From positions 1-8,228 of IMG/VR virus record IMGVR_UViG_2737471869_000029: a stretch of 8,228 bases of DNA. One strand, 5' to 3'. Below are positions 1 through 8,228 of this stretch, piece after piece. Within the stretch, counting starts at the first letter, position 1. Each line of letters begins with the position of its first letter. Source of the stretch: a virus (lineage: Duplodnaviria; Heunggongvirae; Uroviricota; Caudoviricetes). Below the pieces are notes generated by a model. That model did no database searches, was not told the DNA's origin, and saw only the letters and a list, made by a program, of their open reading frames with translations. The position numbers were made by a program, and so were the translations under genes.

Positions 1-52
1 GGACAGGCCCACCCCACCAGGAGGACCCGCAAAAAAGGCGGCTGCTGCCGCC
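1..52. repeat. Copy A of a conserved terminator-associated element (GGACAGGCCCACC-N3-CCAGGAG-N7-AAAAAAG-hairpin)
   Basis: Positions 1-37 align with 2530-2566: 13/13, then 3 mismatches, 7/7, 4/7, 7/7. Each copy is followed by a different GC-rich hairpin. Confidence 0.55.
31..52 (-). terminator. Rho-independent terminator after the capsid gene
   Basis: Minus-strand read: GGCGGC-AGCA-GCCGCC hairpin (37-52) followed by TTTTTT (31-36), 7 nt downstream of the stop at 59-61. Confidence 0.6.
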
Positions 53-58
53 TTGTTC

Positions 59-1939
59 TCATGAAGAAATCGCTCTGACCATTCCGCGATAATCCAGAGC
101 AGCAACGCCAGCATCAATGCGGACCTTCCAGGCCACACCGTCAACAATAAAGCCCTCCTGCTGCTCAAGGTAAGGCTCGTCATTACCGTCAAGATAAGCC
201 ACCTCAATTGTGTCCGTTCCCTGTGCTGAAAGCATGTACCATTGCTTATCACTGACTTCATCAAGGCGGGGATCGACAATAATATCCAGTTGTTTGTGGT
301 ACGGGTTATATGAACCACTGTTTGTATCGGCACCAAAAGGCGTGGTTGAGTTAACCATTTGCAACGCTCTGTCTTCCAGAGCCGCTGGAACAAGAAGGAA
401 TTTTGGCACAATATTCAGCACCTCACCGTTTTCATCCCTCTGTGTGCGCATTGCACGGCGTGCAATGCCAAGCCCTGTAGTGCTGACTCCGTTATCAATA
501 TCATTTCCGTGTTTTTTGCTGAACAGCGGTATACCGTCAGAAAGCTTTGTGTTTCCTGTCAGCACCAGATGAACCAGATTACCCACCGTTCTGGCGGCTG
601 CTCGCCCCATTGCCTGCGGGATAACGGTTAACTGATTCAGATCATCGTTAATAATCGCCTGTCGGGTAATGCTGAAAATATTACCGTAGGTGGCCAGCGC
701 GATTGGTTCACCACGGTCACTGGTGGTTATGTATTTATATTCCGCACCTTCCGGCACTTTGTTTAATGTCGAGAAGCCATTCAGACCAACACGACGCGCT
801 TCATGGAAGTTTGACAATGAACCTTTTTTCGTCCACTGGCGAAATGTCTCGCCGCTTTGCTCCCATCCGGCAAGCACTGATTTTTCAGCGCCACCAGCAA
901 GGATATAAGTAAAATCGCTGCTGCTGTGGTTGAATGCCGCGTTTACTATCTGCGAGCGTGTGCTGTAGCTGCCTGTGCTTATGCCGCGATGGGTTAATGA
1001 TGCCTGTGCCATATCGAAAAGGCTCATCATGGCGTAAGGGTTTCCGCGTTCTGCCTGCTCGTGCCCAAGACGCGCATTAAGCCCCTGACGCATTGCATCA
1101 CCCGTTATGTTGCCGTTATCCGTATATGCGTAGTAAAGATTTGCAGGTGTGGTTTTGTTTGTCGGTGTCGATTCTTTACCCATAGTGAGTAAAAGACGTT
1201 CGCGCGCATCCTCAACGCTACACCCTGAATCAGCAAGACAACTTATAGCCAGGTCGTTATATCTTCCGTTGAACGTACCGAACAACTCACGGATCCCGTT
1301 GAGTCGTTCCTGTTCTCCGCTGGTCGTTTTCTGGCTGATCATGTTCTTAATATTTTCCGGCATATTTGAAAAATCTCCGATTCGTTTTGATTCAATTCGG
1401 GCCATTGCTGTAATCGCGGGTATAACCTCGTCTGCGAAGCCGTTAGCCTTACACTCATTGCCATCCATCCAGGTTTCCGCCTCCATCATGGCGGTGATTT
1501 CCTGTTTGCTCCTGCCCGTTCTTCCGGCGTAGGTTTCAGCCATCGTGTCGCCCAGCTTGTCCATCAGGTCAGCAAAGCGGCGAACGTCGCCCGACACTCC
1601 GGCAGTAACACCACGGGGGGCATGTATCATCATCATTGCGTTTTCAGGCATAACGATGTGATCGCCACACATGGCAATAAACGAGGCCATAGAAGCCGCC
1701 ATGCCTTCAATGTGTACAATTTTCTTTGCCGGATGATTTTTCAGGGCGTTATAGATAGCCAGCCCTTCAAAGATGTCGCCACCAGGTGAATGGATGCGAA
1801 GATGGATTTCAGACGCATTACCACACGCGTTGATCTCGTCAGTAAGTGCCGATGCTTTTACACCGTACCCGCCGATCTCGTCATAAATGCGCACATAGAC
1901 AACATCTGCCATAGCCTTAATGGAAAACCATGTTTTCAT
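59..1939 (-). CDS. Prohead serine protease (ClpP-like) fused to HK97-fold major capsid protein, 626 aa
   Basis: N-terminal ~190 aa carries ClpP/S14-like motifs (HSPGGD, GMAASMAS with the nucleophile Ser, MMMIHAP with the His). The C-terminal ~400 aa has a phage major-capsid-like tail (FLLVPAALEDRAL ... GFIVDGVAWKVRIDAGVAALDYRGMVR). AGGAG sits 7 nt upstream of the ATG at 1939, and the start overlaps the upstream ORF stop (ATGA). A hairpin with T-tract follows the stop. Confidence 0.7.
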   Translation of the reverse strand: MKTWFSIKAMADVVYVRIYDEIGGYGVKASALTDEINACGNASEIHLRIHSPGGDIFEGLAIYNALKNHPAKKIVHIEGMAASMASFIAMCGDHIVMPENAMMMIHAPRGVTAGVSGDVRRFADLMDKLGDTMAETYAGRTGRSKQEITAMMEAETWMDGNECKANGFADEVIPAITAMARIESKRIGDFSNMPENIKNMISQKTTSGEQERLNGIRELFGTFNGRYNDLAISCLADSGCSVEDARERLLLTMGKESTPTNKTTPANLYYAYTDNGNITGDAMRQGLNARLGHEQAERGNPYAMMSLFDMAQASLTHRGISTGSYSTRSQIVNAAFNHSSSDFTYILAGGAEKSVLAGWEQSGETFRQWTKKGSLSNFHEARRVGLNGFSTLNKVPEGAEYKYITTSDRGEPIALATYGNIFSITRQAIINDDLNQLTVIPQAMGRAAARTVGNLVHLVLTGNTKLSDGIPLFSKKHGNDIDNGVSTTGLGIARRAMRTQRDENGEVLNIVPKFLLVPAALEDRALQMVNSTTPFGADTNSGSYNPYHKQLDIIVDPRLDEVSDKQWYMLSAQGTDTIEVAYLDGNDEPYLEQQEGFIVDGVAWKVRIDAGVAALDYRGMVRAISS

Positions 1940-2130
1940 AGCCAGGCTCCTAACGTTGCCCTGTACCAGTATTCAACCGCGCTGCGTGTGATTTGTCCTT
2001 TCGTGGGTACCGGCATACCCGGGTGATTGTCTTTGATGAACTGCTGATAGCGTTCGATCTTCTCCATAGTTCCGGCGTCTATGTGTACCGTGGCACTTTT
2101 ATCCGGCTTTCTGGTGTTGTTCTCTGGCAT
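1936..2130 (-). CDS. Hypothetical small protein, 64 aa from the ATG at 2130 (track gives 75 aa from 2163)
   Basis: GGAGG lies 8 nt upstream of the ATG at 2128-2130; the ATGATG at 2163 has no SD. Its stop overlaps the capsid start (ATGA), suggesting translational coupling. No recognisable motif. Confidence 0.5.
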   Translation of the reverse strand: MPENNTRKPDKSATVHIDAGTMEKIERYQQFIKDNHPGMPVPTKGQITRSAVEYWYRATLGAWL

Positions 2131-2212
2131 AAATCCGCCTCCGTTTTGATTAACGGGCATCATTATTGATCGATAAAAGTAATAGATAAATCATTTTCTA
2201 CCTGAAAATTAG

Positions 2213-2218
2213 ATTATA
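2213..2218 (-). promoter_or_regulatory. Candidate -10 hexamer (TATAAT on minus strand) for the small-ORF/capsid operon
   Basis: Perfect TATAAT on the minus strand about 80 nt upstream of the ORF start. No good -35 at 17 bp, which would fit an activator-dependent promoter. Confidence 0.25.
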
Positions 2219-2250
2219 TTTTTCTGATTATTCTCAGAGAGGCAAATCCA

Positions 2251-2280
2251 TTGACGCATTTTTGCTATTGAAGCAATATT
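2251..2280 (+). promoter_or_regulatory. Candidate sigma70 promoter on plus strand (TTGACG-N18-AATATT)
   Basis: TTGACG at 2251-2256 and AATATT at 2275-2280. It points rightward into a region with no plus-strand CDS but a strong plus-strand terminator 45-80 nt downstream. Confidence 0.3.
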
Positions 2281-2286
2281 AAGACT

Positions 2287-2361
2287 CGTCATCCTGGCGA
2301 TAAAAACTCCTTTGTCGTGTAAAAGCGCCTCCGGTAACAGCAATCGAGGGCGCTTTTTTTT
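2287..2361 (+). ncRNA. Candidate small RNA (about 75 nt) between the plus-strand promoter and terminator
   Basis: Bounded by the promoter candidate at 2251-2280 and the intrinsic terminator at 2325-2361. No ATG-initiated ORF inside. Purely structural inference. Confidence 0.2.
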
Positions 2362-2375
2362 GCGCCTGTTTTTTT
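2325..2375 (+). terminator. Strong plus-strand intrinsic terminator (tandem hairpins with T8 and T7 tracts)
   Basis: GCGCC(2325-2329) pairs with GGCGC(2349-2353), followed by T8 (2354-2361). A second hairpin GGCGC(2349-2353)/GCGCC(2362-2366) is followed by TGTTTTTTT. On the minus strand the T-tract is only TTTT. Confidence 0.55.
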
Positions 2376-2529
2376 GTAAATGTTTTCGGGAACGCTCCAG
2401 TGATGAACAAAAAACAACCTGATTCGACACTAAAAATTTTTATTCCTCAATATATCAATAACTTATAGTGGTGGTGATGGTGCCATAAAAATCAAAAAAT
2501 GCGCCTTTTTCCGCGCCCGCCCGCCCCGT

Positions 2530-2581
2530 GGACAGGCCCACCAAGCCAGGAGTACCTACAAAAAAGCCGGATTGCTCCGGC
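2530..2581. repeat. Copy B of the conserved terminator-associated element
   Basis: GGACAGGCCCACC (2530-2542), CCAGGAG (2546-2552), AAAAAAG (2560-2566), then hairpin GCCGGA-TTGC-TCCGGC (2566-2581). Preceded by an unusual CCGCGCCCGCCCGCCCC tract. Confidence 0.55.
2560..2581 (-). terminator. Rho-independent terminator after the 90-aa ORF
   Basis: Minus-strand read: GCCGGA-GCAA-TCCGGC hairpin followed by TTTTTT, 20 nt downstream of the ORF stop at 2601. Confidence 0.6.
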
Positions 2582-2600
2582 TGTGTGCTCACTTCTTCGG

Positions 2601-2873
2601 TTATTCTCCAGCGCTTTTAACGTTGATGGTTGTTACCTCTTCCGCTTCGGCAATCTCCCGCTCTGTCAGCGTGGCAAAGTTTGCCGCCGTCGTGGTCATG
2701 AATGCGCTTATCAGTTCGGGATGTGCTTTCGCATATCCTTCCCCCGCATGGCGGTCTATCGTTCTGATTGCCACCTTTAAAGCGTGCTCTGTCATGTCTA
2801 ACGCGCGATATTTCGGTTCTGTTCTGTCTCTGCGTTTTTTGAGTGATTTATTAAATTTCCCTGAAGTGTGCAT
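2601..2873 (-). CDS. Hypothetical protein, 90 aa, immediately downstream of the origin
   Basis: ATG at 2871-2873 with GAGGGGG about 11 nt upstream; own terminator downstream. Ala-rich helical-looking sequence with no motif I can name. Confidence 0.5.
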   Translation of the reverse strand: MHTSGKFNKSLKKRRDRTEPKYRALDMTEHALKVAIRTIDRHAGEGYAKAHPELISAFMTTTAANFATLTEREIAEAEEVTTINVKSAGE

Positions 2874-2919
2874 ATTTATTTTTACCCCCTCGTTTAAAAA
2901 GTTTTGAGTTGTGCCTCCC

Positions 2920-3150
2920 CTTGTCTACCTTATCTACCTTAGTGGCCATCATGCCAGTAATGGCGCGGCTTTCAGCGGGGTAGAGTGCTTTTATCCACTA
3001 TCTACCCCGTGTCTACCTCCCTGTCTGATTCAGGTAAAATCAGGTAGAGAGGGTAGATAGTGGGTAGACAGTAAAAAAAGGCTATCTACATAACTTAATG
3101 CACTGAATTAAATGTATTTTTCTTTACTCAGGTAGACAGGGTAGACAGCA
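2920..3150. repeat. Iteron-type replication origin: at least 10 copies of GGTAGA(C/G/T)(A) in both orientations around an AT-rich core
   Basis: TCTACC orientation at 2924-2929, 2933-2938, 3001-3006, 3012-3017. GGTAGA orientation at 3043-3048, 3052-3057, 3063-3068, and tandem GGTAGACAG at 3131-3139 and 3140-3148. AT-rich segment at 3072-3128. Sits directly 3' of the primase-helicase stop (3162). Confidence 0.65.
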
Positions 3151-3161
3151 ATTACAAAAAA

Positions 3162-4910
3162 TTATAAAAACGCGTCGCACTCGTCTGTTGTTATTGCGTT
3201 AGTCTGCGTTACTCCCTTAACTTTCCGCGTAATATATTCATGTCCGTAAACTTTCGCGGCTGGCTTCATAGCCTTGCCAAAGTCATTTACGTTTAGCGGT
3301 TTGCTCCTGCCTGCGTACGCCATAAACGCCAGATAGACGCGGTAAAGGCTGTTCCTGGTCGTGTACTTCACTGAATCACCACCGCCACCCATCATCAGGC
3401 CGCGCGCTTCCTCCAGAAAATTCAGGAACTGGCAAAACTCAATAACCGGATCCGTCTGTTGCTTTATTGCCAGTGCTTCATCACCGTCACGCTGTTCCAG
3501 TAGTAAAGCCCGTGCCTTCTCAGGGTCGGTAAAGTTCGCCAGCAATCGGCGGATAATGACAGGGATTTCAGCCGCGATCTTTTCCGGTAGCTCCCTGTCT
3601 TTTTCGGCCTCACTGACGATATTGTCGAAACGGAAAATTACGCGACGACGTGACACACCTCCGGCCCGTTCGGTGAATATCATCGGGTTATTGTTGGTAG
3701 CCAGCACCACCGCCCTGATTACCGCCGTAAAACGCTTCTCATATTTCGGGTTTATTTCCACGGGGTCGCCGCCCGTGATTTTCTTGATGCCCGTTCCTTC
3801 GCCTGTATATTTCGGCTGGTCAGCCAGGACGATAAGACGACTCCCGACAACCTGCGCACGTCCACCAGCATCATCAAGCGATGTCATCTCCGCGCTCACC
3901 GTGTTCTGTTTCCCTGCCAGAAGGCTGGCTATGTGCGTGAATGTACTTTTACCGCTCCCGCCGTCTCCGGTGGCCTCAATAAACATCTGCCAGTCGTACC
4001 GGTTCGCCATAATCATGTACAGCGCGGCACATATACGCATCATCTTGCGCGGGTCTTTTCCGGCTGCGTGCTCAAGCCATTTATGAAAGTTTGGCGCGTT
4101 ATCGCGGATGTTCTCCCCAGGTGCTGGTGGCGTGTACTCAATGCCGTTGTGCGTGGTGATCCAGTTCTCCGGCGTGTGCGGGGAAAATTCCCCCGTTTTC
4201 AGGTCAAGCGCACCATTGGCGAACGGCAACAAATCGCCGGACGGCTCGCCCATTGGTTCGGCAATAACTTTTAACGCTTCCACGGCGTTATTGATTACGC
4301 GCTTGCTGAAAGTGGCCCTGTGCTCTGAATAGATCGCCACCATTTCGCGGCTAAGTTCCATTGTGCTGACCGGACACCATACCCCGCCGCGCCATACGTG
4401 AACGATTTCACTTTCCGGATGCACACAAACGCCATCAAATCGACCAGCAAGCATCTGTGCGCGCTCACTGTCTGCCATTTGTGCCAATTGCGTATTTTTC
4501 TGCTCCGGCATGGTAAGCCCTGCGGCAATATTTTCACGCTCAGCATTCAGATAGCGCCGCCAGTTTTCACACTTCTGGACGTGCATTCCTTCGGGGTAAA
4601 AATTTGCGTCCTGAATATCTGCCGCCGCCAGCTTCTGACCAATCTTCTTGGTCTCCACTAAATCCAGTTCTCCGGCCTGGTACAGCCTTACGCGCTTTTT
4701 CCCATCCGGAACAATTTTCAGCGCATCAAGTTCGGCAAGCTGATTTGGCCCAAGCCACACAGGCGGCACATTATCGCCGGATGCGGGGCCATCCTGCTCC
4801 TGCCATTGTTCCGCGTGTGACCAGGCATCACTACCCGCAAAGATAATTACCTCTGTGTCTTTGTGTTTTATTCCGCGTGGCTGTTTTTTTACGTTCGGTG
4901 CCAGTTTCAT
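3162..4910 (-). CDS. Replication primase / SF3 helicase (P4 alpha-like, D5 family; PICI pri-rep type), 582 aa
   Basis: Walker A GDGGSGKST and a downstream hydrophobic-acidic stretch (LIVLAD) typical of D5-like helicases; large N-terminal domain. Start ATG overlaps the upstream ORF stop (ATGA). Iterons lie immediately downstream. Confidence 0.88.
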   Translation of the reverse strand: MKLAPNVKKQPRGIKHKDTEVIIFAGSDAWSHAEQWQEQDGPASGDNVPPVWLGPNQLAELDALKIVPDGKKRVRLYQAGELDLVETKKIGQKLAAADIQDANFYPEGMHVQKCENWRRYLNAERENIAAGLTMPEQKNTQLAQMADSERAQMLAGRFDGVCVHPESEIVHVWRGGVWCPVSTMELSREMVAIYSEHRATFSKRVINNAVEALKVIAEPMGEPSGDLLPFANGALDLKTGEFSPHTPENWITTHNGIEYTPPAPGENIRDNAPNFHKWLEHAAGKDPRKMMRICAALYMIMANRYDWQMFIEATGDGGSGKSTFTHIASLLAGKQNTVSAEMTSLDDAGGRAQVVGSRLIVLADQPKYTGEGTGIKKITGGDPVEINPKYEKRFTAVIRAVVLATNNNPMIFTERAGGVSRRRVIFRFDNIVSEAEKDRELPEKIAAEIPVIIRRLLANFTDPEKARALLLEQRDGDEALAIKQQTDPVIEFCQFLNFLEEARGLMMGGGGDSVKYTTRNSLYRVYLAFMAYAGRSKPLNVNDFGKAMKPAAKVYGHEYITRKVKGVTQTNAITTDECDAFL

Positions 4911-5206
4911 TTTTTACCCCTGAATACGTTAAGCATCTTTTTTATTTCCTGAATATTGGCGCGTGCTTTCTCCCTGCTGGTGGGCACGTTATGCGGCGCG
5001 GTCTGTACAAGAGAAAAATCACGCCGGAACTGATAAACAGGCATCACGCAATCATATTCGTAACCCTCACGGCGGTAAGTTACGCACCGTCCCGCCACGC
5101 CCTTAATCATTACCGTGCCGCCGTACTGGTCGCGGTAAATATCACCGCGCGTAAATTTAGGGTGAGTGTTGCCACTGGCAGTTAAGCCAGAATATTTAAG
5201 TTTCAT
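4907..5206 (-). CDS. Hypothetical protein, 99 aa, coupled to the primase-helicase
   Basis: ATG at 5204-5206 with GGAG about 11 nt upstream; stop overlaps the primase start. No recognisable motif. Confidence 0.55.
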   Translation of the reverse strand: MKLKYSGLTASGNTHPKFTRGDIYRDQYGGTVMIKGVAGRCVTYRREGYEYDCVMPVYQFRRDFSLVQTAPHNVPTSREKARANIQEIKKMLNVFRGKK

Positions 5207-5211
5207 TATTT

Positions 5212-5442
5212 TTATTCTCCGGTGTGGGGCACGTTATTATTTTCGTGAATTGCCATTGCCTTATCCAGTTCATCAATAACAGGCGATAGTAATGTCTGAA
5301 TGGCTGCAAACATTAATACACCTGATTCCTCACCACCTTCCGGCACTTCAATTAATTTAATTAACAACGCATTCATTTCGCGCGCTTTAATTAATGCGTT
5401 TTCAGAGTGGATTAATACTTCAAAAGGGATTTTATGCATCAC
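5212..5442 (-). CDS. Hypothetical small protein, 75-76 aa (GTG at 5442 or ATG at 5439)
   Basis: GGGAG lies 7 nt upstream of the GTG; the start overlaps the stop of the upstream 66-aa ORF (GTGATG / TGA). Helical, acidic sequence. Confidence 0.5.
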   Translation of the reverse strand: MMHKIPFEVLIHSENALIKAREMNALLIKLIEVPEGGEESGVLMFAAIQTLLSPVIDELDKAMAIHENNNVPHTGE

Positions 5443-5639
5443 AAAATTTCTCCCTGGCGAATACGGGCGGCGAATACCATCACGCAGCCATCAGGAGATT
5501 GCTGGCGTGCTTCCTGTTCGCTGGTGGCCTCAATGGTAATCACGCGCGGTTGTGCAGTGCTCAGGGCGATAAAACGCCAGATGTATTTATTCAGGTTGTG
5601 CGAGTCCCGCCCTTGCGGGTGTGTAGTATGATTTCTCAT
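5439..5639 (-). CDS. Hypothetical small protein, 66 aa, first gene of the leftward replication operon
   Basis: ATG at 5637-5639 with GAGGT 5 nt upstream. It is the C-terminal part of the 303-aa track ORF, which I reject as a whole. Confidence 0.45.
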   Translation of the reverse strand: MRNHTTHPQGRDSHNLNKYIWRFIALSTAQPRVITIEATSEQEARQQSPDGCVMVFAARIRQGEIL

Positions 5640-5735
5640 AGCTACCTCGATACTGTTGCTATCGTTGGTGGTTAGAAGCCCGGTTAGTGTTAGCGCACTG
5701 CCGGGTTTCGTCGTTTCTGCACCTTGCATCAACAA

Positions 5736-5810
5736 GGTGTTGAACACCAATTTAAACCTAGGTGTTAAACACGTCAAGTGTTGAACACTTGTTTTTTTTC
5801 CTGCATACTG
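5736..5810. promoter_or_regulatory. Genetic switch: three palindromic operators GTGTTnAACAC over back-to-back divergent promoters
   Basis: Operators at 5737-5747, 5762-5772 and 5778-5788. Leftward promoter candidate (minus strand) TTGACG 5772-5777, N17, TAAATT 5749-5754. Rightward candidate TTGAAC 5781-5786, N17, CATACT 5804-5809. Confidence 0.6.
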
Positions 5811-5838
5811 CATTTGTTTTTTGTGAGGGGGACACAAC

Positions 5839-6018
5839 ATGGCGACAAAAGCAGTAAACGCAAAATCACAAACAGTTGCGGCAAGGGTTCCGCATGAAGT
5901 TATGAACAATGTTGAGGCGGTAAAAATGCCTGGTGAAAGTACAGGGCAGTTTGTAACAGCAGCATTAAAGCGAGAAGTTGAGTACCGCCAGCGCCGCAAG
6001 GCCAAAGAATCAGAATAA
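5839..6018 (+). CDS. Small ribbon-helix-helix-like DNA-binding protein, 59 aa (not in the ORF track)
   Basis: ATG at 5839 with GAGGGGG 6 nt upstream. Sequence MATKAVNAKSQTVAARVPHEVMNNVEAVKMPGESTGQFVTAALKREVEYRQRRKAKESE fits an RHH (Arc/CopG-like) beta-helix-GxS/T-helix pattern. Transcribed divergently from the replication operon. Confidence 0.55.
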   Translation: MATKAVNAKSQTVAARVPHEVMNNVEAVKMPGESTGQFVTAALKREVEYRQRRKAKESE

Positions 6019-6075
6019 TAACTATCATCGCCGTGGTGTGAGGAACTCCGGCGCATTGCTTTACAGGTACACAGA

Positions 6076-6249
6076 ATGACCAACAAAGAATCAACCAATA
6101 CACCATCACCGGCACGGAAAAGACGGCGCAGAAAGATAGAGCATGAATCAGAAAGATTCGCGCCATGTGCTTTTGCCCTTGAGCAATTCCTTAAAGAGTA
6201 CAGGGAAACGCGCTCATTGCAGGTATGGCAACGAACTGAACCAGACTGA
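6076..6249 (+). CDS. Hypothetical small basic protein, 57 aa (not in the ORF track)
   Basis: ATG at 6076 with a weak AGGT SD 7 nt upstream; same frame as the RHH ORF. Arg/Lys-rich N-terminus (ARKRRRRK). A plus-strand terminator follows. Confidence 0.3.
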   Translation: MTNKESTNTPSPARKRRRRKIEHESERFAPCAFALEQFLKEYRETRSLQVWQRTEPD

Positions 6250-6313
6250 TTGCATTGCCCACCAGCCTGATAGCGGCTATCATCCCCGTGCTTATGTTTA
6301 GTGCTTTCCCATT

Positions 6314-6344
6314 GGCGACCGCCCCCGGTCGCCTTTGTTTTATG
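6314..6344 (+). terminator. Plus-strand intrinsic terminator ending the rightward small operon
   Basis: Perfect 8-bp stem GGCGACCG / CGGTCGCC (6314-6321, 6326-6333) with a 4-nt loop, then TTTGTTTTATG. No T-tract on the minus strand. Confidence 0.6.
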
Positions 6345-6360
6345 TGTCATATGCTCCCCT

Positions 6361-6570
6361 TTACACTGCCTTACCTGAATTAATGCGATCCCGGCTTTTA
6401 ACCCATTCCATAACCTCGGACAGCAGCCACCCTACAGAACGACCGCCCAGATTAAGACGTGACGGAAAGCGCCCTTTTTTCTCCAGTTCGTAACGTGTAG
6501 TGCGGCACACTCCAGTTAACTTACGACATTCATCCTCACGGATTACGCGATCTTCATTTATTTCACGCAT
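6361..6570 (-). CDS. alpA: AlpA-family (excisionase-like) transcriptional regulator, 69 aa from the ATG at 6570 (track gives 98 aa from a GTG at 6657)
   Basis: Conserved AlpA core CRKLTGVCRTTRYELEKKGRFPSRLNLGGRSVGWLLSEVMEWV. The 87 bp between 6571 and 6657 is very AT-rich, promoter-like, and has no SD before the GTG, so I prefer the ATG start. Confidence 0.82.
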   Translation of the reverse strand: MREINEDRVIREDECRKLTGVCRTTRYELEKKGRFPSRLNLGGRSVGWLLSEVMEWVKSRDRINSGKAV

Positions 6571-6693
6571 ACAAAAACCTACATAAAAATTACGTATATA
6601 AACTTTTCTCTTAGCTGTAGATATATGAGATCGGATATTACTTAGATTCTTTTTCACCTCTTAAATTAAAAACACAACCATGCTAAAGGCTTT

Positions 6694-6720
6694 GTTCGCT
6701 AAGGTTCGTAGAAGCTCGTT
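6694..6720. promoter_or_regulatory. Three 10-bp-phased direct repeats G(T/C)TCG(C/T)T upstream of alpA
   Basis: GTTCGCT at 6694, GTTCGTA at 6704, GCTCGTT at 6714: exact 10-bp periodicity. Confidence 0.3.
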
Positions 6721-6911
6721 AGTGTTTAAAATCGTGTCACGAGTTTTTAAGCGACGCAACAAAAAATGTCGTCATTTGGCATGACACCTGAATCACCTCA
6801 TTAAAAACAAATAGATAAACCATCAGGTGTTGGAACAATCAAGAAACAGAGAATAAGAACTCAGAAGAAGACATTTCAAATTTTTTCGATAGTTGACACA
6901 TATAAAGAGAA

Positions 6912-6983
6912 GATATTTGCAGATATTCCCCGATATTCTAAGATCTATTCACGGCTGTAATCTCTTAAAGAAAAAACAGCCGT
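6912..6983. promoter_or_regulatory. 10-bp-phased GATATT repeats plus an 8-bp inverted repeat just downstream of the int stop
   Basis: GATATT at 6912-6917, 6922-6927 and 6932-6937, with a degenerate GATCTATT at 6942-6949. Inverted repeat ACGGCTGT (6951-6958) / ACAGCCGT (6976-6983) with a 17-nt A-rich loop. A perfect TTGACA sits at 6893-6898. Confidence 0.35.
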
Positions 6984-6989
6984 AATTTG

Positions 6990-8228
6990 TCAAGAATTTT
7001 GGGGGTAAATTCGCGGGGTCATAACAACGATTTTTTCATCATTGTTCTGGAGAAGCTCGAGACGGTCTACCCATAGATTAAGAGCATCACGTTTTGCATC
7101 AAGGTAGCGGGAGTGGTTATAGACTCGTTGCATCCCTGGCATCTGGTGGGCTGTAAGCTGCTCGACAATATGCGGATCCACGCCTAAATCGTTCAGCATG
7201 GTTGTAAATGTGTGCCGGATATCGTGTAACGTCCAAGGGGCTTGATTAATTCGTCTGTGCGCTGTTCTTCCGTACTCTGCTACCGAAGATTGTCCTTTCA
7301 GTTCACCAAGCAATAAGCCCGTGTGTCTGTTCTGCTCCACCAGTTGCGTGACGAACGGCAAAATGCTTTCCGGTATTGGCCTGAATATGGCGACCTTCGT
7401 TTTGCTGTGCTCCTTCGGTACTGTCCAGAGCATTTCTTTAAAATCCCACTCCTGCACCTCAGAGCGCCTTAGCTCAGTGGTACGGCATCCAAAAACAATC
7501 AGGAGGCGAATTAGGGCGCTGTAGTATGGCGGGAATATTTTGTCATCCAGGGCGCGGAGTAATTCCCCAAGCTCCTTGTTTGTTAGTACGCGCTCGCTCA
7601 CTTCTGCTTTTTTTCCCACATCACCGACAACCATATCATCAAGAACGTTGCTGATTGCGTATCGTCGTTTTCGGCAGTACTTAAGCGCCTGTTTGCATAC
7701 CTGTAGCAAAAATCCGGCAGATACTGGGCTTCGCTTTGCCATCTGGTCAAAACATGCCAACCAGTGCCGTAGCTCGCATTTTTCCAACGGCAAAGCGCCA
7801 ATCTGGCTGATTATGTGTTTATTGATCCGGCTTTTCAGTGATTCGTAGTCAGTGCGCTTTTCCTTTGCATACGATTCAAGCCAGTAAGTGAGCGCTTCCT
7901 TAACTGTCACGGGGGCTAACGCATCCTGTACAGCACGATTAAGCTCATAGCGCGGATTTTTCCCCTCAGCCAGCCAGGCGCGACACTGTGCTGCTTTTTC
8001 CCTGGCTGCTTTCAGGCTCAGATCGGGATAATTGCCCAGTCTCAGACGTTCCGGTGATACCTGCCTACCAGTTCCGGCCCTGTAAGTGAAATACCAGGTT
8101 AACAGGCCGCTGGTGGAATGTCTTACGCTAAGATTGCCACCGTCATTAAAAAAGGCGTTTTTTGTGGTTGGTGATCCGCTTAATTTTCGTAAAAGAGTGT
8201 CGCTAAGTCTATGAATTGCGCTGCTCAT
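6990..8228 (-). CDS. int: Tyrosine recombinase / integrase, P4-type, 412 aa
   Basis: P4-int-like N-terminal arm-binding region (FNDGGNLSVRHSTSGLLTWYFTYR), catalytic motifs LHDIRHTFTT (His-x-x-Arg) and VYNHSRY (Tyr nucleophile), conserved Arg in GCRTTELRR. ATG is at 8226-8228, the window edge. Confidence 0.93.
   Translation of the reverse strand: MSSAIHRLSDTLLRKLSGSPTTKNAFFNDGGNLSVRHSTSGLLTWYFTYRAGTGRQVSPERLRLGNYPDLSLKAAREKAAQCRAWLAEGKNPRYELNRAVQDALAPVTVKEALTYWLESYAKEKRTDYESLKSRINKHIISQIGALPLEKCELRHWLACFDQMAKRSPVSAGFLLQVCKQALKYCRKRRYAISNVLDDMVVGDVGKKAEVSERVLTNKELGELLRALDDKIFPPYYSALIRLLIVFGCRTTELRRSEVQEWDFKEMLWTVPKEHSKTKVAIFRPIPESILPFVTQLVEQNRHTGLLLGELKGQSSVAEYGRTAHRRINQAPWTLHDIRHTFTTMLNDLGVDPHIVEQLTAHQMPGMQRVYNHSRYLDAKRDALNLWVDRLELLQNNDEKIVVMTPRIYPQNS

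Follow-up and report, generated by a model that had tools for sequence, protein, structure and literature searches.

The gap between the replication genes and the capsid operon of an Escherichia coli phage satellite very probably has a helper-type cohesive-end packaging site (cos), cos1 at 2397–2560, as its main content. The stretch analysed, referred to here as the window, comprises 8,228 nucleotides (IMG/VR record IMGVR_UViG_2737471869_000029, positions 1 to 8,228). Judged by its gene content and layout, this 8.2-kb window represents a phage-inducible chromosomal island (PICI) of E. coli, of the Gram-negative type, and the gap, at 2164–2600, is the boundary between its Replication and Late zones. 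We consider it rather probable that the gap as a whole is a boundary between the replication and late modules, in which cos1 is combined with boundary terminators, the reverse one of these perhaps serving as an insulator. What looked like an empty gap thus turns out to be ordinary packaging DNA, in which a single small feature, a terminator directed against every gene, is unexplained. A first-pass annotation had overlooked cos1 and had singled out a plus-strand promoter-terminator pair as a possible small RNA (sRNA); the most conserved part of the gap was cos1 (2397–2560) and not this pair.

The segment at approximately 2399–2556 was matched in 1,939 of 5,426 complete E. coli genomes with a sensitive search and was the only widespread part of the gap; most of the gap was present in just 144 of these genomes. 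In a search of phage genomes, 2397–2564 (168 nt) had 90.5% identity to phage 1720a-02 and 90.4% to CP-1639. The identity of cos1 to mEp460-type phages, VT1-Sakai and several Shiga toxin (Stx)-converting phages was 72–84%, and it was 72–76% to the mEp460-type phages and many E. coli prophages. The phage and prophage homologues lay between the lysis genes and a DUF1441 small terminase (terS) gene, immediately upstream of terS, and cos1 was assigned to the cos class by this DNA homology to the helper-type region just upstream of the small terminase gene. A packaging function of cos1 would follow from this assignment. Neither a previously described cos sequence nor an sRNA was found for the gap in literature and sequence-string searches.

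Read on the minus strand, cos1 consists of a cosQ-side flank (2560–2534), a GC-rich, cosN-like core (2533–2509, CACGGGGCGGGCGGGCGCGGAAAAA) and an AT-rich, cosB-like segment extending to approximately 2397. The same core was found in a second copy of the site, cos2, and in phage 1720a-02. The AT-rich part has retained 90% identity to helper-type cosB and contains, downstream of cosN, an IHF consensus site on the plus strand (2453–2465, TATCAATAACTTA). This site was the sole match to WATCAANNNNTTR in the window, and the block surrounding it was conserved with the phages; no R sites for terminase binding were identified. The database record of mEp460_4F5 starts within the GC-rich core (aligned at approximately 2533) and has terS at position 189; this is a single record, and further records of mEp460 are permuted. 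The mEp460-, 1720a-02- and CP-1639-type lambdoid phages are candidate helpers. The placing of cos1 and cos2 tells which phages can package the satellite and, since some Stx-converting phages share the cos1-type site, is relevant to the movement of the island between pathogenic strains.

The second copy was recognised from an 81% match between window positions 2472–2570 and positions 6834–6933 of the related sequence L001, just downstream of the capsid gene. In this alignment the GC-rich core of cos2 was as in cos1, and the AT-rich cosB part had diverged. The cosQ-side edge of cos2 occupies positions 1–36 of the window (minus strand), and the site extends past the left end. It follows immediately after the capsid-gene terminator (52–37, minus strand), and the capsid operon is located between two directly repeated cos sites approximately 2.6 kb apart. 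Past the left end of the window, L001 encoded a PerC-family regulator. A 93-aa gene after cos2 was considered as a TerS- or Rpp-like protein and rejected, as no similarity was found.

The plus-strand intrinsic terminator proposed in the first-pass annotation at 2325–2375 is very likely real. It consists of two overlapping hairpins followed by T8 and T7, respectively, which were kept in 30 of 30 distinct sequences (the module sequences compared were 83–99% identical and came from complete genomes and IMG/VR contigs). Hairpin 1 (2325–2353; 2325–2361 including T8) is formed on the plus strand by GCGCCTCCGGT and ATCG[A/G]GGGCGC, with a stem of 11 bp (mismatched at one position in the window), a loop of 7 nt and, in the RNA, U8. 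Its folding free energy was −13.2 kcal/mol in the window, where the stem has one C-A mismatch, and −19.2 kcal/mol in most relatives, where a G in place of A2347 pairs with C2331 and closes the mismatch to give the 11-bp stem. Hairpin 2 (2349–2366; 2349–2375 including the T-run, plus strand) reads GGCGC-T8-GCGCC, then TGTTTTTTT, and was conserved across the family; with TGTTTTTTT, the source of U7, it is predicted to serve the plus strand as a back-up terminator in tandem with the first. In the approximately 83%-identical variants (L012, L050/L053) the loop was altered and a G-U pair had become G-C, and the stem was kept together with a T-run of 7 or more. A plus-strand T-run of 6–8 was present in all variants and was repeated after hairpin 2. 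The conserved T-run was found only on the plus strand. In line with the annotation of the terminator as weak on the minus strand, the U-tract there had decayed in the divergent variants, TTTTAC having become TTTGTC or TTTAGT. A covariation test of the hairpin gave no double-sided compensatory changes because diversity was too low; the changes seen were in the loop, one-sided or pair-creating. Strong hairpin and T-run sites (free energy ≤ −13 kcal/mol) averaged 0.45 per shuffled window vs. four calls, at three separate sites, in the real window. The terminator is thus a constrained element whose direction is that of the plus strand.

Also in agreement with the earlier description, the gene upstream of the gap does not need this terminator, as it has its own on the minus strand. 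The replication (early) operon ends in an intrinsic terminator at 2565–2582 (minus strand; AGCCGGAGCAATCCGGCT then TTTTTTG), which was kept in relatives even where an SSB or PerC gene had been inserted ahead of the hairpin.

The sequence from 2217 to 2398, which contains the reverse-facing terminator, travels as a unit (the module) and was present in 142 of the 5,426 complete E. coli genomes. Sister islands (ECONIH2-type L016, L048/L049) had the same capsid operon, the same leader (2164–2216) and a homologous cos, with unrelated sequence in place of the module and a gene-direction (minus-strand) terminator approximately 75 nt upstream of the small gene that opens the capsid operon. In relatives from other genera, a minus-strand terminator was found 75–122 nt upstream of the small gene, followed by an AT-rich block equivalent to window 2164–2216. 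What these islands have in common here is that the capsid operon is insulated and that a conserved promoter or leader comes next. The lineage of the window is unusual in that the strong terminator faces the opposite way. Conservation of the promoter-terminator pair in related elements, which the first-pass annotation had made a test of its proposal, was found in part: the terminator (30/30) and the key promoter bases were kept within the family, but the module was absent from the sister lineages.

The claim that 2164–2600 is free of genes was upheld. No credible open reading frame (ORF) was found, the 73-aa and smaller ORFs of the gap had no family match, and the 99%-identical island of E. coli 08-00022 carries no annotation there. 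A 27-codon, ATG-started ORF on the minus strand (2292–2209) was rejected: its Shine-Dalgarno sequence is poorly spaced, only 4 codons remain in L012, and an indel at 2219 shifts the frame in most relatives. The limits of the gap need adjusting, as the stretch 2164–2600 is ORF-free but the non-coding stretch is more likely 2131–2600, with a shifted start of the small gene. This gene, a member of phrog_4934 and the first of the capsid operon (minus strand), occupies either 1936–2130 (64 aa, ATG at 2130) or 1936–2163 (75 aa, ATG at 2163). It probably starts at 2130, because of a GGAGG at 2139–2143, the annotation of relatives and its distant homologues. In some genomes, automatic annotation calls an antisense ORF over it.

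The leader or promoter-proximal region of the capsid operon (2131–2218, minus strand) contains (T/C)ATAAT at 2218–2213 and a hairpin at 2140–2157 that abuts the GGAGG Shine-Dalgarno sequence, and it may function as the promoter of the operon. The perfect minus-strand TATAAT pointed out earlier (2213–2218) is present in the window but is CATAAT in most relatives. Besides cos, only 2164–2216 was conserved across genera, with 74–77% identity in Kluyvera/Trabulsiella-type and IMG/VR relatives, and the leader part alone was matched in another 134 E. coli genomes. The cross-genus AT-rich block is approximately 55 nt long and lies just upstream of the small gene (ATTAATCTnTTTTTCTGATAnAAAT...ACTTTTAnTGATCAAT; compared in L048, L055, L059 and L064); in most relatives a gene-direction terminator comes immediately before it. 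Since no good sigma70 match was found in the block, it suggests a late promoter or leader that depends on an activator or on antitermination.

Upstream of the reverse-facing terminator, a sigma70-like promoter candidate is located on the plus strand at 2251–2280, with TTGACG at 2251–2256 and either CAATAT at 2274–2279 (17-nt spacer) or AATATT at 2275–2280 (18-nt spacer). The TTGACG and AATATT hexamers named in the first-pass annotation are present, but their strength as a promoter was no better than chance: matches at 9 of 12 positions numbered 10 against 10.9 expected by chance, and the position weight matrix score was 8.8–10.9 vs. a median best score of 9.8 in shuffles of the gap. The 18-nt register preferred there did not hold, as about half of the distinct sequences had AGTATT in place of AATATT, with loss of the critical −11A. 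In the 17-nt register, the −35 element TTGAC(G/T/C), the −11A and the −7T were kept in every variant (CAATAT, CAGTAT, CACAAT). In L050, 10 of the 30 promoter positions were changed and the key bases were spared; by a rough calculation, the chance of sparing the seven key positions was approximately 0.04. Promoter-like sites 20–150 nt upstream of a same-strand terminator occurred at a mean of 0.075 per shuffled window. As an sRNA's own promoter, the site thus combined conserved key bases in the 17-nt register with a chance-level score; it is plausible, on weak evidence. The palindrome TTGCTATTGAAGCAA (2263–2277) was considered as an activator site and rejected, as its half-sites were not conserved in most relatives.

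That a short plus-strand RNA is made is possible but doubtful. From the promoter candidate and the terminator, a hypothetical transcript at 2285–2362 (plus strand) would measure approximately 75–90 nt and end at the first or second T-run. Its reported lack of coding potential was borne out: it contained no conserved ORF, and the sole ATG-started ORF on the minus strand was broken by a stop or frameshift in relatives. The body of the RNA (2281–2320) was the least conserved segment of the gap, with an identity of 0.64–0.66 in two divergent variants, including indels; in the same comparison, the leader had 0.87–0.96 and the cos core 0.88–0.90. Neither a conserved body nor a conserved seed was seen, and no structure upstream of the terminator was shared among relatives. 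When the window and the gap were scanned against Rfam with permissive E-values, only sub-threshold noise resulted (IS128 at 22 bits vs. a threshold of 80, snoRNAs and miRNAs).

The earlier suggestion of a P4-type immunity RNA was not supported. No Rfam C4 or isrK match was obtained in the window at E ≤ 1 or in 2130–2620 and 5200–6990 at E ≤ 10; the candidate is on the wrong strand and at the wrong location (the opposite strand, at the Replication/Late boundary), and the window contained no complementary repeat longer than 10 nt. Complementarity to island mRNAs, another proposed check, was likewise not seen: there was no significant duplex at nine translation starts, and complementary words were ≤10 nt window-wide. 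The best duplex target was the start of the small gene, at the level of 1% of shuffles, which was not significant after correction for the nine starts. An 8-nt match between the 5′ arm of the hairpin, CGCCTCCG, and the Shine-Dalgarno region of the small gene was rejected, as a base of it was lost in L050 with no compensating change.

Elsewhere in the window, a second plus-strand promoter-terminator pair was observed at 6255–6340, with TTGCCC-17-TATCAT at 6255–6283 and a very stable hairpin at 6314–6341 (GGCGACCG-CCCC-CGGTCGCC followed by TTTGTTTT; fold z = −5.4). This pair, which lies just past the alpA stop and antisense to the beginning of the ORF at 5439–6350, makes a stronger candidate for a small RNA than the pair at 2251–2375. 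A sub-threshold, SymR-like Rfam match was also observed on the plus strand at 5640–5712 (32.9 bits vs. a threshold of 61; local-search E of 6e-4). Antisense to the approximate start of the Icd-like coding part, it has a plus-strand terminator at 5759–5791 and was not found in four related islands.

In the reading that we prefer, the gap would be ordered in gene direction as replication terminator (2582–2565), cos1 (2560–2397), reverse tandem terminator (2325–2375), fast-evolving spacer (2324–2217) and capsid leader or promoter (2218–2131). Upon induction of the helper the island would replicate, and the helper terminase would recognise and cut cos1, with its helper-like cosB, and package the replicated satellite DNA. 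The plus-strand terminator would act as an insulator that halts plus-strand transcription from the capsid side before it enters cos and continues as antisense into the replication genes; what it stops may include a short transcript from 2251–2279. We propose this insulator role tentatively and would put it at somewhat under an even chance. Several points weigh against the boundary reading. The function of cos1 is predicted from homology and position, and the phage-end evidence for cosN is the start of one database record. The sole candidate source of plus-strand transcription is weak, being a promoter at chance level. Sister lineages have gene-direction terminators, and a reverse-facing terminator is therefore not generally required at this position. 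Finally, cos2 has no reverse-facing terminator next to it.

The promoter candidate (2251–2280) and the terminator (2325–2375) could instead belong to an independent regulatory plus-strand sRNA of approximately 75–90 nt, acting in trans on helper or island mRNAs or, after the fashion of lambda OOP, in cis, by convergent transcription or as an antisense against read-through from the replication operon into the capsid operon. In favour of this, the terminator is real, conserved and plus-strand-specific, the key bases of the 17-nt register survived in all variants including L050, and same-strand promoter-terminator pairs were rare in shuffles. A long U-tail and an A/U-rich stretch ahead of the hairpin also fit Hfq-type sRNAs. 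A trans-acting sRNA of a satellite has a precedent in SviR of Vibrio phage-inducible chromosomal island-like elements (PLEs) (bioRxiv 10.1101/2022.04.08.487710). We nevertheless regard such an sRNA as rather unlikely: the strength of the promoter is at chance level for AT-rich DNA, the body of the RNA is the least conserved part and contains indels, the opposite of a conserved seed, and beyond the terminator there was neither conserved structure nor an Rfam match. The target searches were not significant, the module is missing from sister lineages that share both flanks, and no publication describing such a transcript was found. Production of the RNA would give E. coli PICIs a layer of control at the RNA level; otherwise the terminator would be ordinary insulation of the packaging site. 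A related proposal is decidedly unlikely, namely that in this one lineage a reverse-facing cassette, made up of a promoter, a short RNA and the tandem terminator, has replaced the usual gene-direction terminator and controls the late module or protects cos. Here, the transcription or the RNA might collide or pair with read-through from the replication operon until the late phase of the helper; if true, the cassette would be the first sRNA or convergent-transcription switch that we found described for an E. coli PICI.

The terminator could also be bidirectional, with the minus strand as the important direction. It would then back up the terminator at 2565–2582 and shield the capsid operon from early read-through; the operon would need either antitermination or an activator-dependent promoter of its own, and the plus-strand T-run would be secondary. 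This agrees with the gene-direction terminator found at the equivalent place, between cos, or genes upstream, and the leader block, in relatives with the same capsid module, and with a strong stem (−19 kcal/mol in most sequences) that on the minus strand has A8 before it and UUUU after it. However, the minus-strand U-tract is short (TTTTAC) and unconserved, whereas T8 and T7 on the plus strand are conserved and duplicated, and the C-A mismatch in the window weakens the stem to −13 kcal/mol; we consider this explanation unlikely. Least probable, and very improbable in our view, is that the hairpin and the promoter-like hexamers are functionless, the relic of a mosaic junction at which a capsid module replaced the terS of a helper. 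The homology to phages does end approximately 25 nt short of the hairpin, at a point from which the phage sequence runs on into terS, the module is limited to one young E. coli lineage (142 genomes, 83–99% identity), and unrelated sequence takes its place in the sister lineages. Against a relic stands the retention of the stem and the T-runs in the approximately 83%-identical variants while the adjacent 100 nt drifted to 0.64–0.74 identity. In addition, the changes within the hairpin were located in the loop, pair-preserving or pair-creating, and no homologue of the module that would suggest a donor gene was found elsewhere.

Gram-negative PICIs have been described as having co-oriented int, alpA and primase/replicase genes, the last of these with an origin just downstream, a length of 10–15 kb, a specific attachment site and captured late genes, arranged in the zones Integration, Bro, Replication and Late (PMC6092414, PMC10111431). 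The window corresponds to the EcCI type of this group in its gene content, tRNA-Pro site, iterons and captured late genes. Every credible gene of the window is on the minus strand, and the statement that all neighbours of the gap share this orientation was confirmed from the gene calls. These genes encode an integrase (6990–8228), AlpA (6361–6657), a long ORF with an Icd-like or repressor-like C-terminal part (5439–6350), a DUF4222 protein (4907–5206), a D5/P4-type primase (3162–4910), a small phrog_1231 protein (2601–2873) and a fusion of a ClpP protease and a major capsid protein (59–1939). The closest public match (99.3–99.5% identity) was an approximately 10-kb island of E. coli 08-00022 with the same gene order, inserted at tRNA-Pro beside yejM. 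The stretch at 2917–3151, which directly follows the primase gene, contained (T/C)(G/A)TCTACC iterons in at least 10 copies and both orientations, and this array is probably the replication origin of the island. A replication origin inside the gap (2164–2600) was rejected, as the iterons are in the neighbouring gap (2917–3151). The Rfam matches 'mir-135' and 'mir-4716' at 2992–3075 were artefacts of the inverted-repeat array of the iterons.

The stretch between the phrog_1231 gene and its terminator (2583–2611 in the window) was an insertion hotspot in relatives. Its cargo was an SSB gene, a PerC-family regulator gene, or a PerC-family gene with an extra integrase (L002 3500–3922, L003 3357–3762, L012 3426–4702), and every insertion was followed by the same terminator and then by cos. 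The island is common in Shiga-toxin-producing E. coli, and relatives carry the PerC-family regulator gene at this hotspot. No Rpp- or TerS-like gene was recognised in the window. The ECONIH2 sister island L016 has its own DUF1441 gene, of the helper terS type, after the capsid fusion (105–590), and none was present in the examined sequence of the window lineage. Because of this difference, the L016-type and window lineages may hijack packaging in different ways.

Several well-characterised small RNAs offer points of comparison. The RNAs P4 CI and C4 of P1 and P7 resemble the candidate of the gap in being small non-coding RNAs of a satellite or phage. They are, however, processed from the same-strand eta/icd (Bro) transcript and pair with nearby seqA/seqC repeats, whereas the candidate is on the opposite strand, and the analogy fails because model match, strand, location and complementary repeats are all lacking. 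The lambda OOP RNA is 77 nt long, has its own promoter and an intrinsic terminator, and is antisense to cII. Both OOP and SviR of the PLEs share with the candidate their size, their orientation against an operon and a promoter with an intrinsic terminator; the candidate differs from them in being known from sequence alone and in not overlapping a coding gene. If produced, the RNA would be OOP-like in form, membership in any RNA family not being established. SviR is strikingly conserved across PLEs, and the RNA body here was not (bioRxiv 10.1101/2022.04.08.487710). C4/isrK-type immunity RNAs have been reported for the Bro zones of several PICIs, with C4 and isrK as the models that detect them (PMC10111431), and in contrast to those islands no RNA of this type was detected in the window.

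The cos site and the island belong to known kinds, the cos sites of PICIs and the Gram-negative PICIs. The cos of lambda has the order cosQ-cosN-cosB, contains the IHF site I1 and is located approximately 190 bp upstream of Nu1. In the same order, cos1 has a putative cut site rich in GC and then an AT-rich segment that holds an IHF consensus, and the distance to terS in its phage relatives is approximately 190 bp; unlike lambda, the satellite has a reverse-facing terminator module in the place of terS, and no lambda record was among the phage matches. A closer parallel is EcCICFT073, which has functional cos1 and cos2 sites, one copy being essential, and whose cos resembles that of its helper and lets the helper terminase package the island (PMC6092414, PMC6739421). 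The window shares with it the co-oriented int-alpA-primase genes, a capsid homologue, the lack of terS (here within the window) and two cos copies. The two islands differ in that the cos described here is mEp460-, 1720a-02- and CP-1639-like (neither lambda nor phi80 was among the 23 matched phage records), and in that EcCICFT073 has a capsid and a decoration protein where the window has the protease-capsid fusion. Furthermore, the cosB of EcCICFT073 differs from that of its helper and is read via Rpp, whereas cos1 keeps a helper-like cosB, which suggests a simpler hijack of packaging. The helper-embedded PICI (HE-PICI) 11capE and its helper 50icd share 258 bp at 90% identity at the same position of the PICI, a match that falls on cos in the helper and was interpreted as cos (PMC10111431). 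The match between satellite and helper cos at this position and the zones Integration, Bro, Replication and Late are common to 11capE and the window; 11capE is embedded in its helper, and the island of the window is located in tRNA-Pro.

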